A DNA stretch of 64,000 nt from an uncultured Bdellovibrionales bacterium (GCA_964405665.1 CAYOOT010000001.1:30046-94045); one strand, 5' to 3'. Shown: positions 28,363 through 61,440, counted from the stretch's first letter. A program made the numbers and translations. Notes: a model not told the origin generated them from the letters alone.

Positions 28363-30189
28363 CTAAATCAAATAGGCAAATAACAAACATAGTAATGGCA
28401 GCATTTTGATGAGAAATATTTGGTGGGCGACTAATCCTCTTGATTTTATTGTACATTTATCATTTACCACTATTTCTTTTCTGCTAGAAACAAAAACCAA
28501 AGGAAGACTAGCCAAAAGACAGGATAAAGAAAAAGCACCTAAAGCATCTTTTCCCAGAAGTATTCCAATTAAAAAAGGCAAAACCAAAAGTATCGCAAAA
28601 TTAACAATGATCGCTTTTTCACTAAACTCTTGCAAATCTTCTCTTGAATAATCTTTATTAAGAAAATCCACTATCTTGGAAAGCAATAAGGCACTGGCAA
28701 AGCCAGGGGAACAAAAACCAAGGAGCAAGCCAGCAATTACATAGAGATCAGTTAAAACTAATTCATCAAGTTGTGCTGACTGAGTATAGGCAATAAACAA
28801 ACAGATTGCCGTAATAATACTGGCAAAACGTAAATAAGCTCCTCCTTGACTTGCCGCTTTATTGCCAATTTCCTTAAGTTCCAAAAGACTGTTTTTTGTT
28901 TCGGCATCCAAATCTGAAACTTCTGCAATAGCATTGGCACTGGCCGCGATTTGCCCAAAAGAATGAATACTATAATTTATCGCCAATACAGAGAATAAGG
29001 AAACGCCCCCAATGGCAAACCCATAGGCTCCCGCAAAATAATTCATCAACAACATCACCACTGCCAACAAAACAAGTTGAGAAATCACTTCCAGCGAAGA
29101 ACATTCTTCCAATTTCAACAGTTTGCTTAAAGCACTTTCTATTCTTTGTTGAATTTTAAAATAAAAAACCAGGATTCCGACAATTGCTCCCAGCAAAACC
29201 ACCGCTAAAACTTTGAATTTTACAGGTGAAAAAATTAAAAGAAATGAAAAAATTAAAAATAAAGAAGTGGACATTAGACTTGCCACGCTCAGCGCTCTTT
29301 CTGGGTCTTCGTCTTTATAATTTTTTACCAGTTTTATTCCAATAATCGAACTGATTATTCCCAATAAAGACAAAATTAAGGGAACAGCCATTAGTAAAAA
29401 ATTAAACTTATCTAATTCTTCGGCAGGAAAATCTAAAGAGGCTGTGGTGAGAATAGTTAACAACTCCGGAGTGGCCGAGGCGGCAATAATGATTGCCGCT
29501 GTAAGCAAAGAAAGACAACAGACAAAATAATCAAGGCCGGTATATATCAATAAAAGCTGACTCTCTTTAAAAGAATCTTCCAAGGAATCTTTTTTGGTGG
29601 CAGCAATCGAAGCTTCCAAAATGCAAGCTTTAAACAAGATGATATAAGCAACTAATGCTGCTCCAAAAGTAAAGCAAATAAAATATTGTACCGAATAAGC
29701 AGAATTAAAAAAATAAAATAATAAACCAAAACCAAGAAGGATTGTACTTCCAAAGGATAAACCGGAAATTGCCGAACCACAGAAACAAAGATAAAATGCT
29801 TCATTTCTACCTTTATCTTTTGCTACCGCCACTGCCCGAATATTAGCTTCAGTCACGGCAATTGAGGCAAAATATAAAGGAATTAAAATACAAGCTCCTC
29901 CAAAAACAAAACTTAAAGCACCGAGGAGTCCAAAAGATGAATTGAAAAATAAAATTAAACCGAGTACGGAAATAAAAATTATTAAAGTTTTACTTTGAAA
30001 TTTAAAAAAGTTCCTAATCATCGAAGCAAGAGCATGTTGCGCCTCCTGCATTTTTGCGGTTCCTGTTGATTCGATTAAAAGAGAATTGTAAATTTCAAAA
30101 GCAGTGATTAAACCCACGGCTCCGGCAACCGGAACAAAAATGGTAATTAAGGAATTAAACCAATAAAGTAATTTTGTAAAAAAGCTCAT
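28363..30189 (-). CDS. Polytopic membrane protein, possibly a divergent and catalytically degenerate homologue of membrane pyrophosphatases
   Basis: It has about 14 to 16 TM segments. By eye it is co-linear with M-PPase blocks (ANIRAVAVA...AFY..GSAISGLSFGSTILLGFGLL resembles ANARTT..AFRSGAVMG..GLGLL). It lacks the Asp-rich catalytic motifs GGxYTKAADVGADL and DNVGDNVGD. Confidence 0.3.
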   Translation of the reverse strand: MSFFTKLLYWFNSLITIFVPVAGAVGLITAFEIYNSLLIESTGTAKMQEAQHALASMIRNFFKFQSKTLIIFISVLGLILFFNSSFGLLGALSFVFGGACILIPLYFASIAVTEANIRAVAVAKDKGRNEAFYLCFCGSAISGLSFGSTILLGFGLLFYFFNSAYSVQYFICFTFGAALVAYIILFKACILEASIAATKKDSLEDSFKESQLLLIYTGLDYFVCCLSLLTAAIIIAASATPELLTILTTASLDFPAEELDKFNFLLMAVPLILSLLGIISSIIGIKLVKNYKDEDPERALSVASLMSTSLFLIFSFLLIFSPVKFKVLAVVLLGAIVGILVFYFKIQQRIESALSKLLKLEECSSLEVISQLVLLAVVMLLMNYFAGAYGFAIGGVSLFSVLAINYSIHSFGQIAASANAIAEVSDLDAETKNSLLELKEIGNKAASQGGAYLRFASIITAICLFIAYTQSAQLDELVLTDLYVIAGLLLGFCSPGFASALLLSKIVDFLNKDYSREDLQEFSEKAIIVNFAILLVLPFLIGILLGKDALGAFSLSCLLASLPLVFVSSRKEIVVNDKCTIKSRGLVAHQIFLIKMLPLLCLLFAYLI

Positions 30190-34716: not shown

Positions 34717-34747
34717 GACTGTAACCTAAACTTTGTAATTTCCAATA

Positions 34748-34849
34748 TACGTACGGAGCGCGGACTTTAGTCCGCTTATTTCCAAATATATTAATATAGC
34801 AGGATAAAAGTTTGGTATTAAGCAGACTAAAGTCCGCGCTCCGTACGTA
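34748..34849. repeat. Long inverted repeat: 28-bp arms with 1 mismatch and a 46-bp spacer, MITE-like
   Basis: TACGTACGGAGCGCGGACTTTAGTCCGC (34748-34775) pairs with GCAGACTAAAGTCCGCGCTCCGTACGTA (34822-34849). Each arm also contains the internal palindrome GCGGACnnnnGTCCGC. Confidence 0.7.
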
Positions 34850-34998
34850 TTATGCTTTTAATTACGTATACGGAAATTCCAATTAATTACACAGTTTAAT
34901 TTACAATCTCAAAAATTTAAGCAAAGCACTGGACTTGACTAATTGTTCATATTTCCATAAAAACTAAATATTTAGAGGTTAATAACCTAAAATTTGGA

Positions 34999-47133: not shown

Positions 47134-47140
47134 ATTCTTT

Positions 47141-47210
47141 ATGGATTTTTCTAAAAGTTATGCCCCTCGTAACTGCCATACCTTTTTAAAAATACTGTAG
47201 CTGATTAAGA
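47141..47210. repeat. Degenerate copy of palindromic repeat family B
   Basis: TTTTCTAAAAGTTATGCCCCTCGTAAC...TTTTTAAAAATACTGTAG matches both halves of the 48301 and 60241 copies. Confidence 0.45.
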
Positions 47211-47283
47211 TCATATCATTCTTTAAATACAAAAATGATATAGTTTTGTATTTCAAATAACTTCCAAAAACAAAATTTAAGCT

Positions 47284-48216
47284 ATGGCAGAACAAGAAAA
47301 GAACAAGGTTTCTAATTCCAAAGAACCAATAAATTTAAGGCGCATTTATCCTATTGCCTATCGTTCAATTTTGCGTCGAAGTTTTGTCTGGATTGTTGGC
47401 TTAATTATCTTGATGATTATCATCCCGATCGTCGATTCTTTTACACCAGGCAACGGGACAATGGTTGATCAGGTATTTTTTTTTCTTGAAACTACAATCC
47501 TGATTTTAGGAATTATTGTAGTATGTACCAAAATTATTTATGAATTTATTTATTTCCGCCTTTATTATTACGGAATTGAATTGGAACACCTGATTATTTC
47601 CCGGGGACTTTTTTTCAAAACACGCACTTCTATACCTTTGGCCTCCCTCTCAGATATCTACATCGATCGAGAACCAATTGATCTGCTGTTTTCTCTTTAT
47701 AATCTTCGTTTTACTACGGCCTCTCCGGCAGAACATGGTCCGGTGGAAGGTTTGTCCCATAAAAATGCTTTTGATTTTCAAAACTATCTTTTGGCATTAG
47801 CAAATACTACCGTTAAGCCAGTTGATAATGAAGCGGCAAAAGAAATACTAAGTTCTTCAAAAGTAACAAAGGAACCAGGGCTTTTTGACAAATGTCCGGC
47901 AAACGTCGATCCTCCTTCTAGCGCTCCTGAAAATTTACCAGAGCAGCATCGCTCAACTACGACGGAAAATACAGAAGCAAAAAAAGTTTTATCTCCTTCC
48001 CCTGTTCCTGCTCCGACTTCTGAAAACATAGCAATGAAGATAGAGAAAGTTCCCTTAAAAGAAGAAATTGCTCCAACCCCTTCCCTTGTTGCCAATAAAA
48101 TCCTTGATGAATTACAGCATACGCAAGAAGAATTAAAAAAAACAAGAGATGAACTAACTCATGCCGAAGAAGTTTTAGAAAAAACAAGAGATAAAATTGA
48201 ACATCAAACTAAATAA
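47284..48216 (+). CDS. Membrane protein with a bacterial PH-like (YdbS/YdbT-type) domain and a coiled-coil C-terminal tail
   Basis: Two TM helices lead into a PH-like block (IYIDREPIDLLFSLYNLRFTTAS). The C-terminal heptad repeats are EELKKTRDELTHAEEVLEKTRDKIEH. Confidence 0.4.
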   Translation: MAEQEKNKVSNSKEPINLRRIYPIAYRSILRRSFVWIVGLIILMIIIPIVDSFTPGNGTMVDQVFFFLETTILILGIIVVCTKIIYEFIYFRLYYYGIELEHLIISRGLFFKTRTSIPLASLSDIYIDREPIDLLFSLYNLRFTTASPAEHGPVEGLSHKNAFDFQNYLLALANTTVKPVDNEAAKEILSSSKVTKEPGLFDKCPANVDPPSSAPENLPEQHRSTTTENTEAKKVLSPSPVPAPTSENIAMKIEKVPLKEEIAPTPSLVANKILDELQHTQEELKKTRDELTHAEEVLEKTRDKIEHQTK

Positions 48217-48300
48217 TTTAGAACAACTCTTTACGCTAGCAAATTGCTCGCATTCACAAATCCGCCTTCGCTTCGACCTTAGCTAAAGCTACGGCAAGAT

Positions 48301-48358
48301 ATAGTATTTTTCAAAAGTTATGTCCGTAGTAACGGACATAACTTTTGAAAAATACTAT
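48301..48358. repeat. Palindromic repeat family B, best copy: a 26-bp perfect stem with a 6-nt loop
   Basis: The sequence is ATAGTATTTTTCAAAAGTTATGTCCG-TAGTAA-CGGACATAACTTTTGAAAAATACTAT. Related copies lie at about 47141-47210, 57495-57548 and 60241-60299. Confidence 0.8.
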
Positions 48359-48532
48359 AAATGGTTGTTTGAGTTTTTAGCCATTGACACAACATCGATC
48401 CTAGAGTTATTTAAAAGCATATTATATTGATTGGTCTTTCTTCTAAAAAACGAATTAAATACTTTTAAAAATTTGTATTAACAGTAAAACTTGAATTAAT
48501 CCATTGATTCAAAGAATTATTTATCAATAATT

Positions 48533-49156
48533 ATGAACAAAATATCTTCGGGTTCAGACTATCGCTTTAATGACAATCCTTGTCATGCAAATCATTATCT
48601 TTTCCCCCCCATTATAAATATTTTGCAAAAGAAGGGGGCAAAGAAAGTGCTTGATCTTGGTTGCGGTAACGGCTTTCTATCAAAAACACTTTCCGAACTG
48701 GGGATGGAAGTTGTTGGAATCGATCCCAGTCAAAGCGGAATTGATAACTGCAAAAAACTTTTACCGAATAATAAATTTTACTGTATGGGGATTTATGACG
48801 ATCCCAGTAAAATAGTAGAAGACAATTTTGATGCAGTAGTTTCCACTGAAGTAATTGAACATTTATTTTATCCCAGAGAACTCCCGCGTTTTGCTTTTAA
48901 AAAATTAGCGGAAAAGGGCTTGTTGATTTTAACAACTCCTTATCACGGATATATAAAAAACTTAACTTTATCTTTACTGAACAAATGGGATTCTCATATC
49001 AGCCCATTTTGGGATGGTGGACATATTAAGTTTTGGTCTGCGGCAACACTTACACAATTAGTGGAAGAAGAAGGATTCAATTTTCTTGATTTTAAAGGTT
49101 GTGGAAGACTCCCTTATTTGTGGAAAAGTATGCTTATTGTCTGTGAAAAAAAATAA
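48533..49156 (+). CDS. Class I SAM-dependent methyltransferase
   Basis: Motif I is VLDLGCGNGFLS. Confidence 0.7.
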   Translation: MNKISSGSDYRFNDNPCHANHYLFPPIINILQKKGAKKVLDLGCGNGFLSKTLSELGMEVVGIDPSQSGIDNCKKLLPNNKFYCMGIYDDPSKIVEDNFDAVVSTEVIEHLFYPRELPRFAFKKLAEKGLLILTTPYHGYIKNLTLSLLNKWDSHISPFWDGGHIKFWSAATLTQLVEEEGFNFLDFKGCGRLPYLWKSMLIVCEKK

Positions 49157-49251
49157 TTTCCAAATCAGATCCTCCTTGACCCCCATAAAGGATCAAGAAA
49201 GATCTGATTTTCTTGATTATAAAATCAAGAAAAAACAAATTAAATTATCAA

Positions 49252-51753
49252 TTAAAGAGCAACCACTTTCTTGCTTGCCGATTCAAAAGTAGTTGTATTT
49301 TGCTGAGAACCGCTGGCTGGCGCTGAAGAAATTCTCATTCCGTAGAAAGAACGATTAACAAAATATAAACCGGCAATAAGCATCACACCACCGACAATAG
49401 AGGTAGTTGTCTTATCGGCATGAACTGCGATTTCCAAGGCCAATAATCCAAACAAAGTTGTAAATTTAATAATCGGATTAAGTGCAACAGAAGAAGTATC
49501 TTTATAAGGATCGCCCACAGTATCTCCGACCACGGTAGCGGCATGTAGTGCTGTTCCTTTTTCTTTCAAATCAACTTCCACAACTTTCTTGGCATTGTCC
49601 CAAGCGCCACCAGCATTGGCCATGAACATTGCTTGGTAAAGTCCAAATACGGCAATTGAGATCAAGTAACTGATAAAAAATATTGGACCAAAGCAGGCAA
49701 ATGATAATGTTAAACAAAAAATTACTCCGAAAATATTTTTCATTCCGGCTTGAGCATATTGCGTGCAGATTTTTACAACTTCTTTTGAATCTTTTACAGA
49801 AGCCTTATCTGAACTCTCTAAGCGGATATTAGCCTTAATATATTCCACTGCTCGATAAGCACCCGTAGCAACAGCTTGCATCGAAGCTCCGGAAAACCAA
49901 TAAATTACCGCACCACCTGTCATTAATCCCAGCAATACATCCGGTTCCAATAAATTTAGTCCTGCTTTTACTTCAGCACCCAAAGACAAGATCATTGAAA
50001 AAATCATTGTTGTGGCACCGATTACGGCAGTGCCGATTAAAACCGGTTTTGCAGTAGCTTTAAAAGTATTTCCACCGGCATCTCCAGCTTCCAAATGTTC
50101 TTTTCCTAAAGTAAAATTTGGTTTAAAGCCGAAAGTTTTTTCAATATCAGCACTGATTCCGGGAAGTGTTTCAATTTGAGAAAGTTCAAATACTGATTGA
50201 GCATTATCAGTTACCGGTCCGTAACTATCTACGGCAATAGTAACCGGTCCCATGCTTAAGAAACCAAAAGCAATCAAACCAAAAGCAAAGACAGATGGAT
50301 AAACCATGATTACATCTAAACCGGTCATCGCGGTTTTATAACCCACTAGCATTAAGGCCACCATTGCCATACCTTTCCAGAAAGCAGAAAAATTACCTGC
50401 CACTAATCCGGAAATAATATTTAATGATGCTCCGCCTTCTTTAGAAGCATTTACTATTTCAGCAACATGCTGCGATTTAGAAGAAGTAAAGATTTTTGTA
50501 AATTCAGGAATGACTGCTCCGGCCAATGTTCCACAACTAAGGATGATCGCTATTTTCATCCAAATATCTCCCGGAAGATCGCCTAGAATCACATTAGTCA
50601 CTAGAAAGCCTGAGGCAATGGAAACAATGCAAGAAATCCAAACCAAAGAAGTTAGGGGAGCTTCAAAATCGAATTTTTCTAATTTACTGTATCTAGCTTT
50701 AGAGATAACGCCATTGATCCAATAAGATACAAATGAATTAATAATCATCATTGAGCTAATTGCAAAAATCCAAATGATTAATTTAGCTTGCAAACTGGCA
50801 GTTTGTGCAGTTGGAACAAGATTACCGTCAGCTCCCATGGTCATTCCCACGGCAGCAGCGATAAAACTAATCAAAGCAACAGCAGTGACACCATATGTTT
50901 CAAAGCCGTCAGCAGTTGGTCCAACCGAATCCCCGGCATTATCACCGGTACAATCGGCAATCACCCCTGGGTTTCTGGCATCGTCTTCTTTGATGTTAAA
51001 AACTATTTTCATTAAGTCAGCGCCGATATCGGCAATTTTTGTAAAAATGCCGCCACAAATTCTTAAAGCTGAAGCTCCTAAAGATTCTCCGATAGCAAAA
51101 CCAATAAAACACGCTCCAGCATTTTCAGGAGAAACAAATAAAAGGATACAAATAAGAAGAATCAACTCAACGCAGATTAAAAGTGTACCGATCGCCATTC
51201 CAGAACGAAGGGGAATTTCCATGACTGGATATGGTTTTCCTTTTAAAGATGCAAATGAAGTTCTGCTGTTAGCATAAGTATTGATTCTGATACCAAACCA
51301 CGAAACACCGAAGGAACCTAAAATTCCAAGAACAGACCACAAAAGAATAGTCATCACTTTTGGAGTTTCAAATCCTCTGAGGATAGAAAAATAATAAAAA
51401 ATACAAGAGCCAACCAGAAGTTCAAGGACAATTAAGAACTTCCCTTGTTGTAATAAATAGGTTTTACAGGTTTCATAAATTAATTCTGAAATTTCCAGCA
51501 TTGATTTATGTACAGGTAAAGCTTTGATTTTAACTGACTCCGAAAGGGCCAGCACTATGCCTATTGCCGCAATAAGCAATCCTGCCTTGAGGATTGTTAT
51601 TCCAGAACAAATCGTCCCGAGAATTGTAAAAGGGATATCTAAACTAGGTAACTGGATACTGCCTTCACTGGCCAAAGCAGGGTTAACAAATGCTAAGGTG
51701 GAAAAAATAAAACTCATTATAATAAAGCTCTTATGATTTTCTACTTGATTCAT
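49252..51753 (-). CDS. hppA: Membrane-bound pyrophosphatase (H+- or Na+-translocating, M-PPase)
   Basis: The catalytic blocks are GGIFTKIADIGADL, DCTGDNAGDSVGP and GGAWDNAKK...VVGDTVGDPYKDT. The protein has about 16 TM helices and is 833 aa long. Confidence 0.85.
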   Translation of the reverse strand: MNQVENHKSFIIMSFIFSTLAFVNPALASEGSIQLPSLDIPFTILGTICSGITILKAGLLIAAIGIVLALSESVKIKALPVHKSMLEISELIYETCKTYLLQQGKFLIVLELLVGSCIFYYFSILRGFETPKVMTILLWSVLGILGSFGVSWFGIRINTYANSRTSFASLKGKPYPVMEIPLRSGMAIGTLLICVELILLICILLFVSPENAGACFIGFAIGESLGASALRICGGIFTKIADIGADLMKIVFNIKEDDARNPGVIADCTGDNAGDSVGPTADGFETYGVTAVALISFIAAAVGMTMGADGNLVPTAQTASLQAKLIIWIFAISSMMIINSFVSYWINGVISKARYSKLEKFDFEAPLTSLVWISCIVSIASGFLVTNVILGDLPGDIWMKIAIILSCGTLAGAVIPEFTKIFTSSKSQHVAEIVNASKEGGASLNIISGLVAGNFSAFWKGMAMVALMLVGYKTAMTGLDVIMVYPSVFAFGLIAFGFLSMGPVTIAVDSYGPVTDNAQSVFELSQIETLPGISADIEKTFGFKPNFTLGKEHLEAGDAGGNTFKATAKPVLIGTAVIGATTMIFSMILSLGAEVKAGLNLLEPDVLLGLMTGGAVIYWFSGASMQAVATGAYRAVEYIKANIRLESSDKASVKDSKEVVKICTQYAQAGMKNIFGVIFCLTLSFACFGPIFFISYLISIAVFGLYQAMFMANAGGAWDNAKKVVEVDLKEKGTALHAATVVGDTVGDPYKDTSSVALNPIIKFTTLFGLLALEIAVHADKTTTSIVGGVMLIAGLYFVNRSFYGMRISSAPASGSQQNTTTFESASKKVVAL

Positions 51754-52027
51754 ATTCTTTGATTCCTAAATTATCTAAACTAAAAATTACTTGGTCTTGA
51801 TATAGAAAAATTTACCTTACGTAAAGGGGCAAATAGCCAAAATAATTAAGCTGAGTTTTTTGTTGCATGGTAAGTGCTCAGAATTAAACATTATTTTCTT
51901 ATATCCAAATCAAATATTTTTATATAATTAAATCTAAATAATATTGTGTTTTTACAATAAGTTAGTGTTAAATTGTTGCTTGTATGGCATGCCAAGCGGC
52001 TTTCCTAATAGTTAAGTACTTGCTATA

Positions 52028-52327
52028 TTGGCCGACATAAAATATACACAATCCATATTGGAGGGTGATCAATCTAAATATTATATGAAAAATTCAACTG
52101 AATTTAAAACATTAGACAAACTAAGCATTGGTCAAAATGCTACAGTATTAGAAGTTAGCTGTAATAATTCTGAATTAAGACAAAAGCTTCTATCTTTGGG
52201 AGTTGTAAAAAACACTGTAATTAAAGTTTTAAAAATATCTCCTTTAGGAGATCCGATTAGTATTTTGATTCGTGGTTTTGAACTTGCCCTAAGAAAATCG
52301 GAAGCGCGGGCAATTAAACTCTCCTAA
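52028..52327 (+). CDS. feoA: Ferrous iron transport protein A
   Basis: It has an SH3-like FeoA domain (LSIGQNATVLEV...GDPISILIRGFELALRKSEA). The track start is TTG, and the ATG at about 52085 is the more likely start. Confidence 0.7.
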   Translation: MADIKYTQSILEGDQSKYYMKNSTEFKTLDKLSIGQNATVLEVSCNNSELRQKLLSLGVVKNTVIKVLKISPLGDPISILIRGFELALRKSEARAIKLS

Positions 52328-52333
52328 AATTCT

Positions 52334-54265
52334 TTGAAAAATCAATCTAGCAATCTAAGCGATCAAAAACAACTCTCCGTTGCTCTTGCCGGAAATCCTA
52401 ACTGCGGGAAAACTACTCTTTTTAATGCTCTTACTGGTCTAAAATATAAAGTTGCAAATTATCCCGGAGTTACCGTTGAGAAAAAAAAGGGGAAGCTCTG
52501 TCTCTTGGAATTCCATGACGTGGTACTGCTCGATCTTCCCGGAATTTATAGTCTAGTCGGAACTTCAATTGATGAAAAAATTGCTACTGCTATTTTGCAA
52601 GGAGAACTAAAAGTTGAAGCAGTTCCCGATTGTATTGTCGCAGTAATCGATTCCTCCAATTTGGAGCGTAATTTATATCTGGCGACACAATTAATTGACC
52701 TGGGATTGCCTTTAATTATTGCCTTAAATATGCTTGATATCGCTGAAAAAAAAGGCTTTGTTATTCATGGCGAAATTCTCTCCAAACTTCTGGATGTCCC
52801 TGTAATTTCCATTATTGCCAATAAAGCAAAAGGTTTGGATCTGTTAAAAGCTGAAATCAGTAAAACTTTAAAACAAAAAAAAATCTCAACAAAAAGTTTT
52901 GAATGGCGAAAATATATTTCTCCCGCAGAAGAAAAAGAAGATCCATATGGCTGCGAAGCCACTGCCCGCTATCAATTAATTAATGAAATAATAAAAAAAT
53001 GCTGTTTCCATAAAAAAATTGAAGGAAAAACTTTTGAAGAAACTTTTGATAAAATTGCCACCCATAAAACTTGGGGAACTCTTTTATTTCTCTGCATTAT
53101 GGGCTTTTTCTTTCAGGCAATTTATCTTTGGGCAGAAATTCCAATGAATATTATTAATGCAGCCATTGATCTGCTTAGCAAAAAAGTAAGCGCTGCAATG
53201 CCTCATGGGCAACTGGAGAGCCTAATAGTTGATGGGATGATTGCCGGGGTAGGAAACGTCATTATTTTCATTCCACAAATTGCAATCCTTTTCTTTTTCT
53301 TGGGGATTTTGGAAGATTCCGGTTATCTGGCTCGTGCGGCATTTTTAATGGACCGCTTAATGAGACCTTTTGGTTTGCAAGGAAGATCTTTTATTCCCCT
53401 TTTAAATTCTTTTGCTTGTGCCATCCCCGGAATTCTTTCTTCTCGGAGTATCCCTTCTAGAACAGATCGCCTGGCAACGATTCTTGTCGCACCTCTAATG
53501 AGTTGCAGCGCCAGACTTCCGGTATACACAGTATTAATAGCAGCTTTTATTCCCAATCAACTACTCTATGGTTTTATTTCTTTGCAAGGTCTGACAATGC
53601 TTTCGATGTATCTCTTAGGAATAATTGGAGCCGCAGTCGTTGCTTGGCTTTTAAAATTAAGTGTCCTTCGAGGAAAACCGGCAATTTTTTTAATGGAACT
53701 GCCCACAATGCACTTTCCTGCTTTTAAAAATATTCTAAGAGAAGTTTTTGATAGTGTAATCACTTTTCTTAAATCCGCAGGAACTGTAATTCTTGCTTGT
53801 TCCGTTGTCCTCTGGGCAATGGCGAGCTATCCCAAAGCTCCGCCCAATTATAATGATAATCCGGTAAAATACAGTATTGCTGGAAGAATTGGGCTGGCGA
53901 TGGAACCGGCAATCAAACCTCTTGGTTATAATTGGGAAATTGGCGTAGGCATTCTCGCCTCTTTTGCCGCCAGAGAAGTTTTTATTTCATCCCTTTCGAC
54001 AGTTTACAACTTAGCTTCCACCGATGATGACAATACAACCTTAATTGAAACATTAAAACAAAAAAATGAAGAAGGAACTTTTAGCACCGCCTCTGCTATT
54101 TCTTTGATGATCTTTTATGTCTTTGCCTGTCAATGTATGTCCACCCTTGCTGTGTGTAAAAAAGAAACCGGCTCTTGGGGTTGGACGGCTTTCATGTTTT
54201 TTTATATGACCGGTTTGGCTTATGTCTGTTCTTTTATTTTCTATCAAACTGCAATAAAGTTATGA
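52334..54265 (+). CDS. feoB: Ferrous iron transport protein B
   Basis: An N-terminal G-domain (GNPNCGKTTLFNALTG, DLPG) precedes the polytopic gate/permease domain. Confidence 0.9.
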   Translation: MKNQSSNLSDQKQLSVALAGNPNCGKTTLFNALTGLKYKVANYPGVTVEKKKGKLCLLEFHDVVLLDLPGIYSLVGTSIDEKIATAILQGELKVEAVPDCIVAVIDSSNLERNLYLATQLIDLGLPLIIALNMLDIAEKKGFVIHGEILSKLLDVPVISIIANKAKGLDLLKAEISKTLKQKKISTKSFEWRKYISPAEEKEDPYGCEATARYQLINEIIKKCCFHKKIEGKTFEETFDKIATHKTWGTLLFLCIMGFFFQAIYLWAEIPMNIINAAIDLLSKKVSAAMPHGQLESLIVDGMIAGVGNVIIFIPQIAILFFFLGILEDSGYLARAAFLMDRLMRPFGLQGRSFIPLLNSFACAIPGILSSRSIPSRTDRLATILVAPLMSCSARLPVYTVLIAAFIPNQLLYGFISLQGLTMLSMYLLGIIGAAVVAWLLKLSVLRGKPAIFLMELPTMHFPAFKNILREVFDSVITFLKSAGTVILACSVVLWAMASYPKAPPNYNDNPVKYSIAGRIGLAMEPAIKPLGYNWEIGVGILASFAAREVFISSLSTVYNLASTDDDNTTLIETLKQKNEEGTFSTASAISLMIFYVFACQCMSTLAVCKKETGSWGWTAFMFFYMTGLAYVCSFIFYQTAIKL

Positions 54266-54396
54266 TTGAAAATTTAATAGTAATATTTTTAGTATTGCTT
54301 GCCTTAATTTTCTTAATCAAGAAGTTTAAAAGTTCTGATTCCAAATCTTGTTCCAAATGTGGCTGCAATAATCAAGCAGATAAAAAAAATAGCTAA
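54262..54396 (+). CDS. Small FeoB-associated Cys-rich membrane peptide (44 aa)
   Basis: Its ATG overlaps the feoB stop as ATGA. It has one TM helix (IVIFLVLLALIFLI) followed by CSKCGC. Confidence 0.5.
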   Translation: MIENLIVIFLVLLALIFLIKKFKSSDSKSCSKCGCNNQADKKNS

Positions 54397-54598
54397 TAAG
54401 CGAACGGACGCTCTAAGATATTATCTTGTTCCCCCGCTACTTGCTTAACGGCAATGGGGGAATTAAAGTAACGATCGACTTCCGGGGTTTGAATATATTG
54501 ATACTTGTCGGTAGCTTTTTCTTCTTTAATTTTATTTCTGAAAATTTCTCCAGGACCTCACTCTGAAAAGCTCGGAATTTTCGTTTACCAATTAAACT

Positions 54599-54973
54599 TT
54601 AATTGGTTCCCAGACGCAAACCGCACCAGACTGCCAGTAGACCAACCACTACACTTATTAGCGCATTCGCAATCGCTAAAGCAAGATGCCCGGAACGGAA
54701 TAAATTTAAAGTCTCTAACCCAAAAGCCGAAAATGTTGTAAACCCACCAAGAAAACCGGTGATTAACAAAAGTCTAATTTCGGCATTGTAAAATGTGATC
54801 CGTTCCAAAAACGCAGCGATAATTCCGATTAACAGACAACCCACAATATTCACAGTAAAAGTAGCCCAAGGAAAGCGGGCATCCGGTAAATTCTGTAAAA
54901 ACATCGTTCCTGTTTTAAATCTCAAGACAGAGCCGATAAAACCGCCTATTCCGACAATTAACATTTCCTTCAT
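54599..54973 (-). CDS. crcB: Fluoride ion channel CrcB/Fluc
   Basis: It has GGFIGSVLRF...GFLGGFTTFSAF and four TM helices, and is 124 aa long. Confidence 0.85.
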   Translation of the reverse strand: MKEMLIVGIGGFIGSVLRFKTGTMFLQNLPDARFPWATFTVNIVGCLLIGIIAAFLERITFYNAEIRLLLITGFLGGFTTFSAFGLETLNLFRSGHLALAIANALISVVVGLLAVWCGLRLGTN

Positions 54974-55101
54974 TGAGCTTCCTGTGAACTGATATGCTTA
55001 ATTGAAATAACCTCAATTCTCTCACCTACTATTTGCTTAATAAAAAGTTTCGCATCATTCTAAGAGTTGATCAACTACAATTTTAAACCACATTTAATCT
55101 T

Positions 55102-56253
55102 CTATTCACTAACTTCAAAACGATCTTCCTTAAAAGTTTTCACTATTACAGGAAATTCGGTGACCCCATTGGAACTAAGAGTAAATTTTCCGGTAATTCC
55201 CTCTAAGTTCTGAGGGCTATGTAAAAAAGTATTAATTTCACCTTTCTTCACCGCGGCAAGTAAAACAGGTATCAGATCATAAGCATAGAGCGCTTCGAAT
55301 GTAGTATCTTCATTAAACCGCAATTGATAATCTCGGAGAAAGCTATCTGCAGATCGAGAATCACCACTGACAGCCCAAGCACCTGTTAAAGCGCCTTGAG
55401 CAGATTTCAATTCAGAAAGATTTGCCACTTGCAGAGTTGTGATTAATTGTCCCCGATAGCCAATACTCCTTAACTGTCGAGCGAAAGTAGATCCTTGTGG
55501 TGGAATCATGGAAATAAATACTGCCTGAGGATTAAGTTTTCGTATTTTTGTGGCAATAGTTCTAAGATCCAATTCCGCGGGAAGCACTTCCTCTTCCAAT
55601 AAAATATTAGTTACTGCCGCATCACGCAAATGCTTTAGCTGCAGTACACAGGCATCTTGTTGAGTAGCGACAACCGCAATACTGGAATAGCCTCGCTTTT
55701 TTATTTCTTCGGCGCTGCGTTTCATTAGAGAAGTAGTAGAGGGCAAAAAGGTTGTGACGTAATCTCGCCTGGCCGCTAATGTTTCGACAACAGAAAGTGA
55801 AATTAAAGGTAGTTGAGCAGCTTTAATAATATCCAGAACAGCATTGCCTTGATTAGCTCCAAAAACAACTAGCAGATCCACCTTTTGAGAAACTATCAAT
55901 TTTTGTACAGCGGAAACAGTATTTTTTGCTTGAAAACCGTCATCCTCAAAAATCAATTCTAAGAGATTTTCTTTGTCGAATTTCTCCTTGGCCAAGAGCA
56001 TCGCATTTTTCATGGAATTACCTTGAAAACCAACGGGGCCGCTCAAAGCCAAGACAATTCCAATTTTTTTTTGAGGTGCTGCTAAACAATATTTACAAAA
56101 AAAGGACTGGAACAAAAGGACAAGTAGAAACGTTACAAATAAGGATTGTAGTTTCATCGTGCAATGCTCACGAATTAGGTTCAACGACAACAGCAGTTCC
56201 ATAACAAAGCACTTCTGCCGCACCGACCATCGGTCCTGTATCATATCGGACAC
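55102..56253 (-). CDS. ABC transporter periplasmic substrate-binding protein (type-I PBP, Liv-like)
   Basis: It has the LivJ/LivK-like fold. The likely true start is the internal Met MKLQSLFVTFLLVLLF (signal peptide) near 56155, which would remove the overlap with the next gene. Confidence 0.6.
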   Translation of the reverse strand: MSDMIQDRWSVRQKCFVMELLLSLNLIREHCTMKLQSLFVTFLLVLLFQSFFCKYCLAAPQKKIGIVLALSGPVGFQGNSMKNAMLLAKEKFDKENLLELIFEDDGFQAKNTVSAVQKLIVSQKVDLLVVFGANQGNAVLDIIKAAQLPLISLSVVETLAARRDYVTTFLPSTTSLMKRSAEEIKKRGYSSIAVVATQQDACVLQLKHLRDAAVTNILLEEEVLPAELDLRTIATKIRKLNPQAVFISMIPPQGSTFARQLRSIGYRGQLITTLQVANLSELKSAQGALTGAWAVSGDSRSADSFLRDYQLRFNEDTTFEALYAYDLIPVLLAAVKKGEINTFLHSPQNLEGITGKFTLSSNGVTEFPVIVKTFKEDRFEVSE

Positions 56254-56521
56254 CGACTATAGCGTTAGCTCCAATCTTCTGAGCATGCTTGATCATTAAT
56301 TGAAAAGCTTCTTCTCTTGTTTGATCACAGAGTTCTGAAAAAATCCCGGCTCGTCCTCCCAACAAAGTCCGCAAACTTCCGACAATTGTCAGCGGCAAAG
56401 ATCTGGTTCTTACGGTAATCCCCCGAACTAATCCCATTGTCTTAACTATTCTATATTGGGCGATATCGAAAGTAGTTGAAATCATCATATAATTATAACC
56501 AATCGGGAAGATCTTTTGCAA
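56168..56521 (-). CDS. YbjQ/UPF0145-family protein
   Basis: The sequence ISTTFDIAQYRIVKTMGLVRGITVRTRS...IVGVRYDT is typical of the DUF74/YbjQ family. It overlaps the hemB 3' end. Confidence 0.6.
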   Translation of the reverse strand: MQKIFPIGYNYMMISTTFDIAQYRIVKTMGLVRGITVRTRSLPLTIVGSLRTLLGGRAGIFSELCDQTREEAFQLMIKHAQKIGANAIVGVRYDTGPMVGAAEVLCYGTAVVVEPNS

Positions 56522-57494
56522 AATAACTGATAATAAAATCTGCTCCTGCTCTTTTTATCGCATAAAGACTTTCCAAAGCCGCTAATTTTAAATCGATAAA
56601 ACCTTTTTCCGCTCCGGCATGAAGTAAACTATACTCACCGCTGACATGATAAGCCCCTACCGGAAGTGTAGTCATTTGAGAAACCTTGCTGATGATATCC
56701 AAATACAAAGTTGCCGGTTTTACCATCAACATATCTGCGCCTTCTTCAATATCCAGAAGTGTTTCGGTTTCCCATTCTTTGGTTCTTCGAAAATCCATTT
56801 GATAAGCTTGGCGATTGCCAAACTGCGGAGCGCCTTCTGCTGCTTCTCGAAATGGTCCATAGAATGAAGAAGCAAATTTTGTGGAATAACTCATGATCGA
56901 AGTATTTTTAAAACCTTCATAATCTAAAGTATGCCTTACTGCCTTAACCATACCATCAAACATACAAGAAGGAGCCACAATATCAGCTCCATTTCTGGCA
57001 AGAACCGCCGCTTGCCTTGCTATTTGTTCGATTGCTTGATCATTATCCACTGTTTCATCGGGATCGGAACTTAAGGGTCCGCAATGGCCGTGATCGGTAT
57101 ATTCACATGAACATAAATCTGTTACCAAAAGAGCTTTTGTTCCCTTTTCTTTTAAAGCTCTTATTGTCGTATTAACCGGATTATGATCATCAAGAGCAAT
57201 ACTGCCGCTAGCATCTTTTGAAGACTTTTCTACAATTCCAAAAAAAAGAAAATTAACTATCCCTCGATCGACAAGAGAGTCGACATAATTTATGGCCAAA
57301 TCCGGAGATAACTGGGAAATTCCCGGCATTGAAGAAATTGCTTTTGTTGCTTTTTCCCCCGTGCGCACAAATACTGGCATTACAAAATCTTTTGGATTTA
57401 AAGAGATATCGGAAACAAAATTTCTAACGAGTTCCCCTTTTCTTAATCTTCGAGGACGAATATTGGGATAAGGAAAATTATTTTTGATATTCAT
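56493..57494 (-). CDS. hemB: Porphobilinogen synthase (delta-aminolevulinic acid dehydratase)
   Basis: It has PRRLRK, the active-site MVKPA and other conserved HemB blocks, and is 333 aa long. Confidence 0.9.
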   Translation of the reverse strand: MNIKNNFPYPNIRPRRLRKGELVRNFVSDISLNPKDFVMPVFVRTGEKATKAISSMPGISQLSPDLAINYVDSLVDRGIVNFLFFGIVEKSSKDASGSIALDDHNPVNTTIRALKEKGTKALLVTDLCSCEYTDHGHCGPLSSDPDETVDNDQAIEQIARQAAVLARNGADIVAPSCMFDGMVKAVRHTLDYEGFKNTSIMSYSTKFASSFYGPFREAAEGAPQFGNRQAYQMDFRRTKEWETETLLDIEEGADMLMVKPATLYLDIISKVSQMTTLPVGAYHVSGEYSLLHAGAEKGFIDLKLAALESLYAIKRAGADFIISYFAKDLPDWL

Positions 57495-57548
57495 ATATTT
57501 TTCTATAAGTTATGTCCGCAGTAACGGACATAACTTATAGAAAAATAC
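57495..57548. repeat. Palindromic repeat family B copy (stem of about 23 bp) in the divergent hemB/apt promoter region
   Basis: ATATTTTTCTATAAGTTATGTCCG-CAGTAA-CGGACATAACTTATAGAAAAATA abuts the hemB start codon. Confidence 0.7.
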
Positions 57549-57639
57549 AATAGCAGCAAGAATAAATCAAATTTATGAAGGTTTAATATTCATAGAGTTA
57601 AATAGTGACTTTTAATGCCTTGTCTGCTAGAGACGAGCT

Positions 57640-58188
57640 ATGAAAAAAGAAGAAAATACGATTATTAATTCCTTTAAAAACTCGATTCGGGATATCCCCG
57701 ATTTTCCAAAGAGCGGAATTATCTTTAAGGACATCACGCCTGTTTTAGCCAATCCCACACTGTGTAAAGAAATCACAAAAATCCTTGTTGCAGAAGCTCT
57801 TAAATTAAAGGTCAATGCTGTAGCAGCAATAGAAAGCCGAGGATTTCTTTTTGGAATGTTAGTTGCTCAACAACTAAATGTTCCATTTGTTCCAGTAAGA
57901 AAAAAAGGCAAGCTCCCCTATAAAACTCACACTCAATCCTATAGTCTGGAATATGGTTCTGCAGAAGTAGAAATTCACATTGATGCCCTTAAACCAAATT
58001 CCAATGTTTTAATTCATGATGATTTGCTTGCTACCGGCGGCACAGCTTCTGCCACAGCTGAATTAATAAAAAAATCAAAGGCGACAATAGCGGGATTTTC
58101 GTTTTTGATTAATTTGGATTTTTTAAAAGGTAAAGAAGCGCTTAAAAAATATTCAAATAACTTTTTTTCTTTGGTTGATTACGTTTAG
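57640..58188 (+). CDS. apt: Adenine phosphoribosyltransferase
   Basis: The PRTase motif is VLIHDDLLATGGTASA, with an Apt-like N-terminus (DFPKSGIIFKDITP). Confidence 0.85.
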   Translation: MKKEENTIINSFKNSIRDIPDFPKSGIIFKDITPVLANPTLCKEITKILVAEALKLKVNAVAAIESRGFLFGMLVAQQLNVPFVPVRKKGKLPYKTHTQSYSLEYGSAEVEIHIDALKPNSNVLIHDDLLATGGTASATAELIKKSKATIAGFSFLINLDFLKGKEALKKYSNNFFSLVDYV

Positions 58189-58204
58189 GCTACTCTTCAT
58201 TATT

Positions 58205-58325
58205 ATTCGAAGAGCAGACATCAGAATTCAGAGGTCGGAATTCTGAAATCGGATATCAGATGTCAGACATCGGAGGTCAGAATTCTGATGTCCGATATCG
58301 GACATCAGAGATCGGAGATCAGAAA
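58205..58325. repeat. Cluster of degenerate 12-14-bp ATCGGAnATCAGA-type repeats with embedded palindromes, between convergent genes
   Basis: Reiterated units include CATCAGAATTC / GAATTCTGATG, ATCGGATATCAGA, CGATATCGGACATCAGA and GATCGGAGATCAGA. Confidence 0.6.
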
Positions 58326-58336
58326 ACAACCCCCCA

Positions 58337-60097
58337 CTAAAGAACATCCCAAGGATACTTCTGTTCTTTAATTAAATGATCGGAAAGCTTTTTGTAATAT
58401 TTATCTTCATCCCGTTCAATTGCTTTAATGTTTTCATTAATTCGAGTACTGGCTAAAGTTGTATAAAGCTTAGCCAAAGTTATTTCCTGAGAGAAATTTG
58501 CTGCCGGATTAGTGCCAATCATCGTTGTCACTCGAGATAAAACTGCAAATCCTACAAAAGTATCAATCGCAATTTCCGCTATCCGTTTTTGAGCAAATTG
58601 CTGATCGACCACATCTTTTCTATACTTCTTGAGCAATGCCCCGGAAGCTTTACTTAGCTGTAAAGTTGTTTTTTCAAAATATTCTGCTTGCTCCTTTAAT
58701 TCTGGATGCACTTGTTCAAACTTATCCATCCCAATAGAAGTTAATTCAGTAAACTTCTTGCCCGCATAATTGGACAAAACTCCAAAACCCTTAATCGGAT
58801 CATTGAGTAACTTCCCAGCGCTTGATCCAATCTCTTTTAAATATTCACCAACGTCTTTGATTCCAGACAAAGCTATATACAAACGAAGAATTTCGTTTGT
58901 CCCTTCAAAAATTAAATTAATTCGAGAATCGCGTACAATTCTTTCATAGGGAAAATCACGCATAAAACCATTTCCACCGGCCACTTGCAGAGCTTCATTA
59001 GCTACTGTCCATAAGGCTTCTGCTGCATAAACTTTACTGATTGCAGCCTCTATTGAATAGTCCTCCACTCCACTATCGATATAGTGACCGACTAAACCCA
59101 CAACACTTTCTGTGGCAAAACAAAGTGTCGCCATCTTAGCTAATTTTTCCTGAACCAAACCGAATTCTGAAATACTTTTTCCAAACTGTTTTCTTTCCGT
59201 TGCTTGTTTTGTGGCAAGGGCAATACATCTTTTCATTGCTCCCACAGAACCGCCACCCAAGCCGGTTCTTCCATTATTTAAAATACTCATTGCTACTTTA
59301 AAGCCCTTACCTTCTTCTCCTAACAAACAATGGGCCGGAACATTGACATTATCAAAGCGAACTGTAGTCGTGGCAGAAGCCCTGATGCCCATTTTATCTT
59401 CTTTTGGTCCGGTCTCTACTCCGGGCCAGGAACGTTCAACAAGGAAAGCGGTTATTTTTCCTGCTTCGGATTCCGTCTTGGCAAATACAGTAAAGAAATC
59501 AGCAAAAGCTCCATTGGTAATCCAAATCTTTTCTCCATTTAAGGTCCAACTACCATCTTTGTTTTTTAAGGCATTTGTTTTAATGGAAGCCGCATCAGAT
59601 CCGGAACCTGCTTCAGTTAAGCAAAATGCAGCAATCATTTCTCCACTGGCAAGTTTGGGAAGATATTTTTTTTTCTGTTCCGCGTTTCCGGAAAGTAAAA
59701 CCCCTTTCATCCCGATAGAACTGTGAGCGGCAATCGTCAGTGTAGTTGCCCCGTCATGATAACTTGCTTGCTCGACCACTCGAGCATAACTGCGATTAGA
59801 AAGACCGAGTCCTTCAAATTCTTCCGGGATAATCAAACCGAATAATCCCAGTTCACGCAGCCCCTGTATGAAATCTTTGGGTTGCTCTCCTTTAACATCA
59901 AATTCTCTAAATTTTTCTGCATAAGGAGTGAGAAATTTATCTACTGAATCTAAGATTAATTTAAGTGTTTCCTTTTCAGCATCAGCAATTTTTGGATAGG
60001 GAAAGATATTGCTCGATAAAATCTGCCCATGAAAAAGCATCTTGGCTGCACTATTTTTTAGGTCCAATTCTTTATTTTTATTGTTATTTAAACTCAC
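58337..60097 (-). CDS. Acyl-CoA dehydrogenase (long-form, with a C-terminal extension)
   Basis: The ACAD N-terminal, middle (CLTEAGSGSDA) and C-terminal domains are present, plus an extra C-terminal tail of about 180 aa. Confidence 0.8.
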   Translation of the reverse strand: MSLNNNKNKELDLKNSAAKMLFHGQILSSNIFPYPKIADAEKETLKLILDSVDKFLTPYAEKFREFDVKGEQPKDFIQGLRELGLFGLIIPEEFEGLGLSNRSYARVVEQASYHDGATTLTIAAHSSIGMKGVLLSGNAEQKKKYLPKLASGEMIAAFCLTEAGSGSDAASIKTNALKNKDGSWTLNGEKIWITNGAFADFFTVFAKTESEAGKITAFLVERSWPGVETGPKEDKMGIRASATTTVRFDNVNVPAHCLLGEEGKGFKVAMSILNNGRTGLGGGSVGAMKRCIALATKQATERKQFGKSISEFGLVQEKLAKMATLCFATESVVGLVGHYIDSGVEDYSIEAAISKVYAAEALWTVANEALQVAGGNGFMRDFPYERIVRDSRINLIFEGTNEILRLYIALSGIKDVGEYLKEIGSSAGKLLNDPIKGFGVLSNYAGKKFTELTSIGMDKFEQVHPELKEQAEYFEKTTLQLSKASGALLKKYRKDVVDQQFAQKRIAEIAIDTFVGFAVLSRVTTMIGTNPAANFSQEITLAKLYTTLASTRINENIKAIERDEDKYYKKLSDHLIKEQKYPWDVL

Positions 60098-60180
60098 GGC
60101 CTACCTCTTTCCTTTCATCGTCTTTTATAGTAAAAAATTAATAGATTAGAGCGGAAGTATTTAATTTATTAATTATACAG

Positions 60181-60299
60181 ATCCCCCCTTCGCTAAACTT
60201 GTCATCCGTAGCTTTAGCGAAGAATGAAGCTTCGGGGGATATAGTTTTTTCTAAAAGTTATGCTCGTAAATAACAAGCATAACTTTTGAAAAATACTAT
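60181..60299. repeat. Composite repeat: an inverted-repeat module (ATCCCCCTTCGCTAAA...CTTCGGGGGAT) followed by a family B palindrome copy
   Basis: ATAGTTTTTTCTAAAAGTTATGC...GCATAACTTTTGAAAAATACTAT lies at 60241-60299. The upstream module shares CTTCGCT/CTAAAGCTACGG cores with 48243-48300. Confidence 0.65.
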
Positions 60300-60313
60300 A
60301 AAATAGCGAGTTT

Positions 60314-61195: not shown

Positions 61196-61440
61196 TAAAA
61201 ATTTTCTTAAAAAATTTGCTTGGACTTCTTCTTTTTTGAAAAAAAGTGTGATAAATAAAATTGCTTCTGAGGCTAGAATGATCATTCTACTTTTGGCGGC
61301 TGTCATAACTTTTTAGAAAATGCTAGATCAGCCCGCTTTTTCTTAATAGGTATTGGCAAAGTAAAGAGAAAAGCAAGGGGTTGTACAATTTCCATCAACC
61401 TTTTTGAAAAATTCCTTATAATTAATATAGGAGATTAAAA

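Follow-up and report, generated by a model that had tools for sequence, protein, structure and literature searches.

The MITEs of prokaryotes, miniature transposable elements bounded by inverted repeats, are 50-800 bp long and typically under 500 bp, with terminal inverted repeats (TIRs) of at least 10-15 bp and target-site duplications (TSDs) of 2-10 bp (PMC11602168). They are AT-rich, lie in AT-rich intergenic targets, yield stem-loop transcripts and leave partial copies beside intact ones (PMC10969869). The Correia elements (CREE) of Neisseria have inverted repeats of ~26 bp, insert at TA with duplication and are often located 5' of genes; their first six bases can act as a -10 box (the 'Snyder promoter'), and their symmetric arms are RNase III substrates in transcripts (PMC2649163, PMC10969869). 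Here, a family of ~60-bp palindromes is described from a 64,000-nucleotide stretch of DNA (hereafter the window) from an uncultured Bdellovibrionales bacterium (GCA_964405665.1 CAYOOT010000001.1:30046-94045), in which four copies occupy intergenic sites. These copies probably represent a small, lineage-specific, MITE-like insertion family made up almost entirely of TIR, a reading to which we assign a probability of roughly 0.6.

An earlier note on this DNA, made from the sequence alone, had described a palindrome family at these four sites, and it is present at all of them, with small corrections to the coordinates (Table 1). In the copy c48301, the note had placed a 26-bp perfect stem with a 6-nt loop at 48301-48358; the stem is perfect as claimed, but it comprises 28 bp closed by the 4-nt loop AGTA, with fully (100%) complementary arms at 48300-48327 and 48332-48359 and TATA on both sides. 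This copy, in which 15 of the 60 bases are G or C, lies between a gene encoding a bPH_2-domain protein (stop at 48216, 84 nt away) and a methyltransferase gene (start at 48533). The arms of c60241 (60240-60267 and 60273-60300) are 28 nt long and 86% complementary, with two bulges, the loop AAATA and again TATA on both sides. As the earlier note had stated, this copy occupies the divergent promoter region of a LysR regulator gene and an acyl-CoA dehydrogenase (ACAD) gene, ending 14 nt before the LysR ATG (60314) and starting 143 nt from the ACAD start (60097). For c57495, the inverted-repeat search returned a longer and less regular pair (57478-57518 and 57525-57565, 83% overall) with a perfect core of 23-26 bp within 57496-57547. 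On the hemB side, its left tip is cut short and runs straight into the hemB ATG (57494-57492, minus strand). The earlier note had the copy abutting the hemB start in a divergent promoter; its end overlaps the start codon (complement of 57492-57494). The fourth copy, c47141, had been called degenerate, and it is clearly homologous to the others, with which it can be aligned over its full length, while carrying many arm mismatches and having lost its stable hairpin. It starts 7 nt past the stop codon of a rhodanese gene (47133) and ends 84 nt short of the next gene start (47284). The three copies other than c47141 are the strongest short palindromes that the inverted-repeat search found in the window.

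The consensus of the element is TATAGTATTTTTCAAAAGTTATGTCCGT-AGTA-ACGGACATAACTTTTGAAAAATACTATA, that is, two TIRs of 24-28 bp around a spacer of 4-6 nt. When the variable base is included, it reads TATAGTATTTTTC(T)AAAAGTTATGTCCGT - AGTA - ACGGACATAACTTTT(A)GAAAAATACTATA, with a length of 60 bp and ~25% G+C. The end sequence is GTATTTTTCAAAAGTTATGTCCG, the two ends read TATAG...CTATA, and copies differ little or not at all in the core AAGTTATG...CATAACTT. The loop has the same orientation on the + strand in all four (..GTAAC or ..ATAAC), and the 60 bp contain no open reading frame (ORF). When the invariant blocks are combined into a family pattern, AAGTTATG-N12-16-CATANCTT-N3-4-AAAAATA, it matches only these four sites in the window, against 0.00 expected from 100 shuffles. 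An nhmmer profile recovers the four at E = 1e-14 to 1e-17, and nothing else in the window scores better than E = 0.01; below that there are an arm-like piece (E = 0.013) and weaker fragments.

Table 1. Copies of the palindrome and arm-like relics, in window coordinates.
Feature	Coordinates	Strand	Description
c47141	47140..47199	.	Degenerate copy; nhmmer E = 4e-15
c48301	48300..48359	.	Perfect palindrome; nhmmer E = 2e-17
c57495	57492..57552	.	Arms 23-26 bp perfect; between divergent hemB and phosphoribosyltransferase (PRTase) genes
c60241	60240..60299	.	Between divergent ACAD and LysR genes
Right-arm-like solo relic	61301..61327	+	Probable member; sequence TGTCATAACTTTTTAGAAAATGCTAGA; nhmmer match 61296-61325, E = 0.013
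Second, weaker right-arm-like relic	61392..61420	+	Tentative member; sequence CATCAACCTTTTTGAAAAATTCCTTATAA; by eye; nhmmer only E ~8

Related genomes indicate that the copies arrived by insertion. Comparison of orthologous intergenic regions, which the earlier note had proposed, was possible at two of the four sites (hemB/PRTase and ACAD/LysR), and at both of them the relatives lack the element. The loci compared were L019, L014 and L013 at the hemB site and L020, L021, L022 and L023 at the LysR site. The ten loci recovered from relatives contain no copy of the element in 52,934 bp, as opposed to four copies in the 64-kb window. Contigs of the same species from the European Nucleotide Archive (ENA), L001, L012 and L018, match the window at 99.8-99.9% identity and include all four copies; c57495 is identical in L001, c48301 is identical in L018 and c60241 is present in L012. 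The element is thus an insertion polymorphism between related genomes, present in the window, L001, L012 and L018 and missing in L019, L014, L013 and L020-L023. On balance, the family seems to have entered this lineage after its split from the lineage of L020, at ~14% nucleotide divergence. Since close relatives lack the element at the same sites, it is best regarded as an ordinary small non-coding transposable element and not as a new kind of system.

The LysR site provides the cleaner of the two comparisons. The LysR protein is 96% identical in L020 (86% at the nucleotide level), 92% in L021 and 87% in L022 and L023, the divergent ACAD-LysR arrangement is kept in L021 and L023, and a block ...AAAATAGCGAGTTTATG upstream of LysR is common to the window and all relatives compared at this site. 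The empty site reads GGG-TATA-AAATAGCG in L020 and CAA-TA-AAATAGCG in L021; in the window, the corresponding sequence is GGGGGA-TATA-[52-bp body]-TATA-AAATAGCG. A TA(TA) that occurs once in the relatives is therefore present to the left and to the right of the element in the window, which plausibly resembles the duplication of a TA or TATA target. Immediately beside c60241, at 60181-60240, there is a ~60-nt hairpin richer in G+C (ATCCCCCCTTCGCTAAA...TTTAGCGAAG...GGGGGAT) that is missing in L021 and L023. Part of it, at 60206-60240, is 77% complementary over 35 nt to 48260-48294, which abuts c48301; the exact core is only 13 nt (E ~0.03). These sequences may belong to a second repeat family or to a composite element, and they were left outside the element definition.

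Downstream of LysR, ~125 nt (61297-61424) are missing in L020 and L021, and the two right-arm-like relics are located at the two ends of this segment, in direct orientation. The evidence that the first relic belongs to the family is weak, and membership is probable rather than certain; that of the second is more tentative. The pair may be what remains of older insertions that have lost their left arms.

At the hemB site the comparison is more complicated. L019 is 86% identical at the nucleotide level, and the hemB products of L014 and L013 are 87% and 83% identical in amino acid sequence. An upstream block, ...TTGATTTATTC.TGCTGC, is common to the window and all three. Beyond it, the relatives have an unrelated 46-nt segment that begins with TGCTATAAT (TATAAT, followed by a leader of ~40 nt and then the ATG), and c57495 fills exactly the interval taken up by their -10 box and leader. 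The distal tip of c57495, TATTGT, falls at the position of the relatives' extended -10 box TGCTATAAT (TATAAT); at 57548-57560 the window reads TGCTATTGT, with the hexamer from the element tip, as opposed to the perfect extended -10 box TGCTATAAT of L019 and L014. The leaders of hemB in this clade have no Shine-Dalgarno sequence. Short homologies, TATxxTATTT and AAATA, occur at the two junctions, both of which look like TA insertions situated 42 nt apart in the native sequence. It may be that the element inserted here and the adjacent 42 nt of native leader were then lost; an adjacent deletion mediated by the element, or recombination between two copies, would explain the spacing of the junctions.

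The terminal hexamer TATTGT, preceded by the native TG, would now supply the -10 box of hemB. If transcription starts ~7 nt after TATTGT, the beginning of the mRNA would fall inside the element, and the message would carry a 16-bp 5' hairpin followed by an A-rich stretch, GAAAAAUAU, left unpaired before the AUG. These consequences for hemB expression are inferred. A sigma-70 scan found no convincing -35/-10 pair within the element arms, where only the terminal hexamer at hemB appears relevant to a promoter.

The copies differ greatly in how well they fold. Predicted RNA hairpins reach -38.6 kcal/mol (z -14.2) for c48301, -30.9 kcal/mol (+ strand, z -11.5) or -35.6 kcal/mol (- strand, z -12.2) for c57495, and -23.4 kcal/mol (z -8.8) for c60241. 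The value for c47141 is -7.8 kcal/mol with a z of -0.8, no better than shuffled sequence, so its stable fold has been lost. Additionally, this copy is drifting from the consensus: position 47187, the sole difference within an element between the window and the same-species contigs, is the family-consensus G in L018 and a derived T in the window.

Divergence between copies amounts to 10-25%, and several of the changes are mirrored in the two arms. The extra T that follows TTTTTC is absent from both arms of c48301 and present in both arms of c57495, which also has an A-to-T change in both; c60241 has TCC replaced by CTC/CTT in both. In c60241 and c47141 the extra T is found in the left arm only and consequently forms a bulge, and c47141 has nine arm differences without a mirror change. 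When the copies are aligned, 86.6% of cells pair, as opposed to only 38-51% in slid registers, and eight pairs have changed on both sides, a number matched by only one of 500 shuffles. Changes in both arms that keep the pairing point to a palindromic symmetry preserved through change, which is suggestive only, as it comes from four sequences and partly from one symmetric indel.

With its 60 bp, TIRs above 10-15 bp, a short putative TSD, AT-rich composition, intergenic location in AT-rich targets, transcripts predicted to fold into stable stem-loops, and decayed and partial copies beside intact ones, the element resembles the prokaryotic MITEs. It differs in lying at the very bottom of their size range and in having virtually no internal sequence between its TIRs. 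The class to which it was compared is the type II MITE, related to its parent insertion sequence (IS) through the TIRs alone. It is also similar to the short Correia forms (69-73 bp), being small and non-coding, with a terminal TATAGT and a putative TA target. The substitution of its TATTGT for the native TATAAT of hemB, in a predicted -10 role, recalls the Snyder promoter. Past the first six bases, the arm agrees with the Correia consensus TATAG[CT]GGATTAACAAAAATCAGGAC at about half of the positions (by eye). However, the element has no core sequence and no integration host factor (IHF) site, measures 60 bp and not 69-157 bp, and is known from four copies in a Bdellovibrionota-like metagenome-assembled genome (MAG), as opposed to more than 100 in Neisseria. 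When compared by eye with the sequence that defines Correia membership at both ends, TATAG[CT]GGATTAAC(A5/ATTTAAA), only TATAGT agrees; the remaining arm sequence, ATTTTTCAAAAGTTATGTCCG, departs from the published patterns (PMC2649163). By analogy, the element would work like a Correia element, and it is not a member of that family.

The earlier note had also offered a label from the REPs, repetitive palindromes of extragenic DNA. Some REP families carry a GTAG or CGTC tag, and a REPIN consists of two REP hairpins in inverted orientation. Members of this group are, like the element, extragenic, palindromic and repeated, with some copies at the 3' ends of genes, and REPs are 14-40 nt long (PMC12306157); in one account they fold into G-C-rich stems (PMC3184786). 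The label was rejected here: the element is 60 bp long with ~25% G+C and no GTAG/CGTC end tag, its single 28-nt arms do not fold into hairpins by themselves, and no REP-associated tyrosine transposase (RAYT) is encoded in the window.

The mechanism we propose is that of a non-autonomous mini-transposon consisting of TIRs only and now partly decaying. A transposase encoded elsewhere in the genome, outside the window, would have recognised the inverted repeats in trans, and insertion would have taken place between genes where TA is frequent, for example in -10 boxes or at the ends of genes, with duplication of TA or TATA. Copies that are transcribed together with a gene would form a long hairpin able to change how stable the mRNA is or how it is processed, which would be a side effect of insertion and not the reason for the existence of the family.

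Several observations weigh against a MITE-like family. The hemB site is a replacement and not a clean insertion, and the clean comparison with an empty site comes from the LysR site only. The TATA that flanks the element is identical at every copy, and it could belong to the inverted repeat instead of being a duplication. Recognition of fixed TIRs by a transposase does not predict mirrored arm changes, which point to selection at the level of the hairpin or to hairpin-templated correction. Nor was a cognate transposase or parent IS found in the window, where a Pfam scan of 52 ORFs detected no transposase, integrase or RAYT/Y1 domain.

Further points concern the distribution of the family. The pattern was searched in one genome per species for 185,579 species, in the JGI metagenomes and in IMG/VR. 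This exact-pattern census yielded five genome, five metagenome and no viral matches, and no further family copy; the matches are all singletons in unrelated taxa without the outer arms or the full palindrome, and are thus attributed to chance. With the element as query, BLAST returned nothing from collections of plasmids and phages. The four copies lie within 13.1 kb of the 64-kb window, a clustering with a post hoc P of ~0.04 under random, length-weighted placement in 30 intergenic gaps. Both the census and the clustering count against a MITE: if the MAG is in the scanned collection and only the window was masked, the family may have no other members, which would be unusual for such an element. 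The absence elsewhere may instead mean that the source MAG is not in the scanned collections.

Two alternatives to duplex TIRs recognised by a DDE transposase are unlikely, but survive better than the rest. In the first, the element would move as a single-stranded hairpin by means of an HUH/Y1 transposase, in the manner of REP/REPIN-RAYT or IS200/IS605-like systems. An element that is essentially one long hairpin is suited to such a model, which also predicts the mirrored arm changes and is consistent with the uniform loop orientation on the + strand. However, HUH elements insert beside a specific tetra- or pentanucleotide without target duplication, and the LysR site looks TA(TA)-duplicated. 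The size, composition and lack of an end tag are again unlike those of REPs; the only GTAG is in the middle of c48301. The window encodes no Y1 transposase.

The second alternative, about as improbable, is that selection maintains the palindromes primarily for a function of their hairpins, in RNA or DNA. They could serve as terminators or insulators acting in both directions, as 3' or 5' structures that stabilise mRNA, or as targets of RNase III, and their repetition would be due to recruitment for such a role. The very stable hairpins in three of the four copies, the two copies directly downstream of genes, the covariation that keeps pairing and the 5' hairpin and unpaired A-rich stretch of the predicted hemB leader would all agree with a function. 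Against this, the element is missing from the same intergenic regions of relatives in which the flanking genes and promoter motifs are conserved, and c47141 has been left to decay. Nor do the hairpins look like terminators, to which, together with SPRITE, they are similar only in placing a stem-loop just after two genes: they lack a G+C-rich stem with a following T-run, they also occur in two divergent promoter regions, and relatives do not have them at the orthologous sites. These contexts are those given in the earlier note, namely two copies after genes and two in divergent promoter regions, and its argument for a mobile or structured repeat over a simple terminator holds up on the empty orthologous sites, the stem composition and the mirrored arm changes. 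The identity of canonical intrinsic terminator was rejected; a terminator scan gave 11 matches in the window compared with 12.0 in shuffles and flagged only c48301, on the minus strand, with the poor tail ACTATATCTT. Rfam, searched at gathering and E-value thresholds, provided no family either, with only sub-threshold, generic hairpins of the miRNA-precursor type at the copies and only two tRNAs in the window passing the threshold.

It is less likely still that the family spread locally without any transposase, either because AT-rich sites close to each other recombined or underwent gene conversion or because of template switching at quasi-palindromes, and is private to a ~14-kb region. The lack of a copy in three public collections and the clustering of the copies fit this proposal, as do the short homologies at both junctions of the replaced hemB segment and the homogenised arms within copies, such as the perfect c48301 and c57495 with the same insertion and substitution in both arms. 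However, no known recombination route puts a 52-56-bp block at unrelated sites with duplicated TA(TA) flanks, as seen at LysR; the difference of 10-25% between copies is unlike recent conversion; and the lack of matches elsewhere may only reflect a genome missing from the collections. In a related reading, somewhat less doubtful but still improbable, the family is private to this ~14-kb stretch, with four full copies, two relics and none in the rest of the genome. It would be a TIR-only mini-element that hops locally, deletes adjacent DNA and rewires promoters, exchanging both the -10 box and the entire 5' leader at hemB. Hairpin-templated correction, instead of recognition by a transposase, would keep its arms symmetric, and it would amount to a minimal palindrome that homogenises itself and remodels regulation in one chromosomal neighbourhood.

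The weakest of the alternatives, that the palindromes are operators to which a dimeric protein, such as the LysR-type regulator encoded alongside, would bind, controlling a local regulon of hemB, PRTase, ACAD, LysR and methyltransferase genes, would account for the two copies in divergent promoter regions (one beside LysR), the clustering within 13 kb and the nearly invariant core, but was rejected, as a LysR that is 87-96% identical and its proximal promoter ATAAAATAGCGAGTTTATG are conserved in relatives without the palindrome, 28-bp arms in a 60-bp palindrome are far above the typical operator size, two copies are downstream of genes, one is decayed, and mirrored half-site changes are unexpected for one fixed protein.

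Other identities were discarded more readily. No parS match was found, and a parS or centromere-like site was rejected; CRISPR was rejected on anatomy. Integron attC sites have the consensus RYYYAAC ... GTTRRRY, with extrahelical bases, and are located at the 3' ends of cassettes. In the element, the GTTATG ... CATAAC order is reversed, with strand choice irrelevant, c48301 is without bulges and the neighbours are housekeeping genes (by eye), and this identity was rejected as well.

The window contains other repeats. Between the convergent PRTase (stop at 58188) and ACAD (stop at 58337) genes, the gap is filled by ~15 tandem heptamers TC[ACGT]GA-NN (58217-58324) with a 14-nt super-period and overlapping palindromes such as GATGTCCGATATCGGACATC. 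This array is also found in L001, and its ATGTCCG...CGGACAT core recurs in the middle of the 60-bp palindrome. A separate 104-bp hairpin at 34747-34850 has 40-nt arms that are 93% complementary, termini TACGTACGG and TA flanks, with a DNA fold of -38 kcal/mol (z -11.7). The gap in which it lies is 345 bp long and follows a gene for a low-molecular-weight phosphotyrosine phosphatase; it looks like a second, unrelated MITE-like element.

The host MAG is Bdellovibrionota/Oligoflexia-like and sparsely sampled. For its BipA, the closest named proteins are from Bdellovibrionota and Oligoflexia MAGs at 74-80% identity (68% for LysR), and the proteins of the window occur on one NCBI contig and in one low-coverage ENA metagenome. 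The window has 35.7% G+C. Its GC skew stays negative almost throughout and turns positive only briefly and locally, at 42-48 kb; the window therefore contains neither an origin nor a terminus. According to the Pfam scan, its genes are ordinary housekeeping genes, including those for polysaccharide synthesis, ribosomal proteins, DnaB, BipA, H+-pyrophosphatase, FeoAB, CrcB, hemB and PRTase; the ACAD is of the ACAD9/VLCAD type and its neighbour is the LysR regulator. There are two H+-pyrophosphatase-type genes (28363-30189 and 49252-51753). The first matches only positions 215-495 of the 645 in the Pfam profile and may therefore be a divergent or degraded paralogue.

In the region of the elements (46.8-60 kb), the order of genes differs from that in L013 and L015. 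Only in the window is BipA followed by rhodanese, bPH_2 and methyltransferase genes. The interval between FeoB and hemB contains an HAD hydrolase gene in relatives but CrcB and a periplasmic binding protein in the window, and after PRTase the relatives have an AAA_14 gene in place of ACAD. These differences indicate that the element-bearing stretch is a rearranged, variable neighbourhood.

Small palindromic mobile repeats that bring promoters and RNA hairpins are already documented (Correia, ERIC, RUP and REP), and the family opens no new question in this respect. For annotation, its value is practical: such hairpins should not be labelled as terminators or small RNAs, and they can break short-read assemblies. 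If the MITE-like reading is correct, a very small family would be added to the repertoire of a poorly sampled, uncultured Bdellovibrionota/Oligoflexia-like lineage. The hemB site would then be a clear natural case of an element taking over a promoter, in which an essential heme gene of this species owes its -10 box and its entire 5' leader to the element, as opposed to the native TGCTATAAT promoter and unrelated leader of the relatives.

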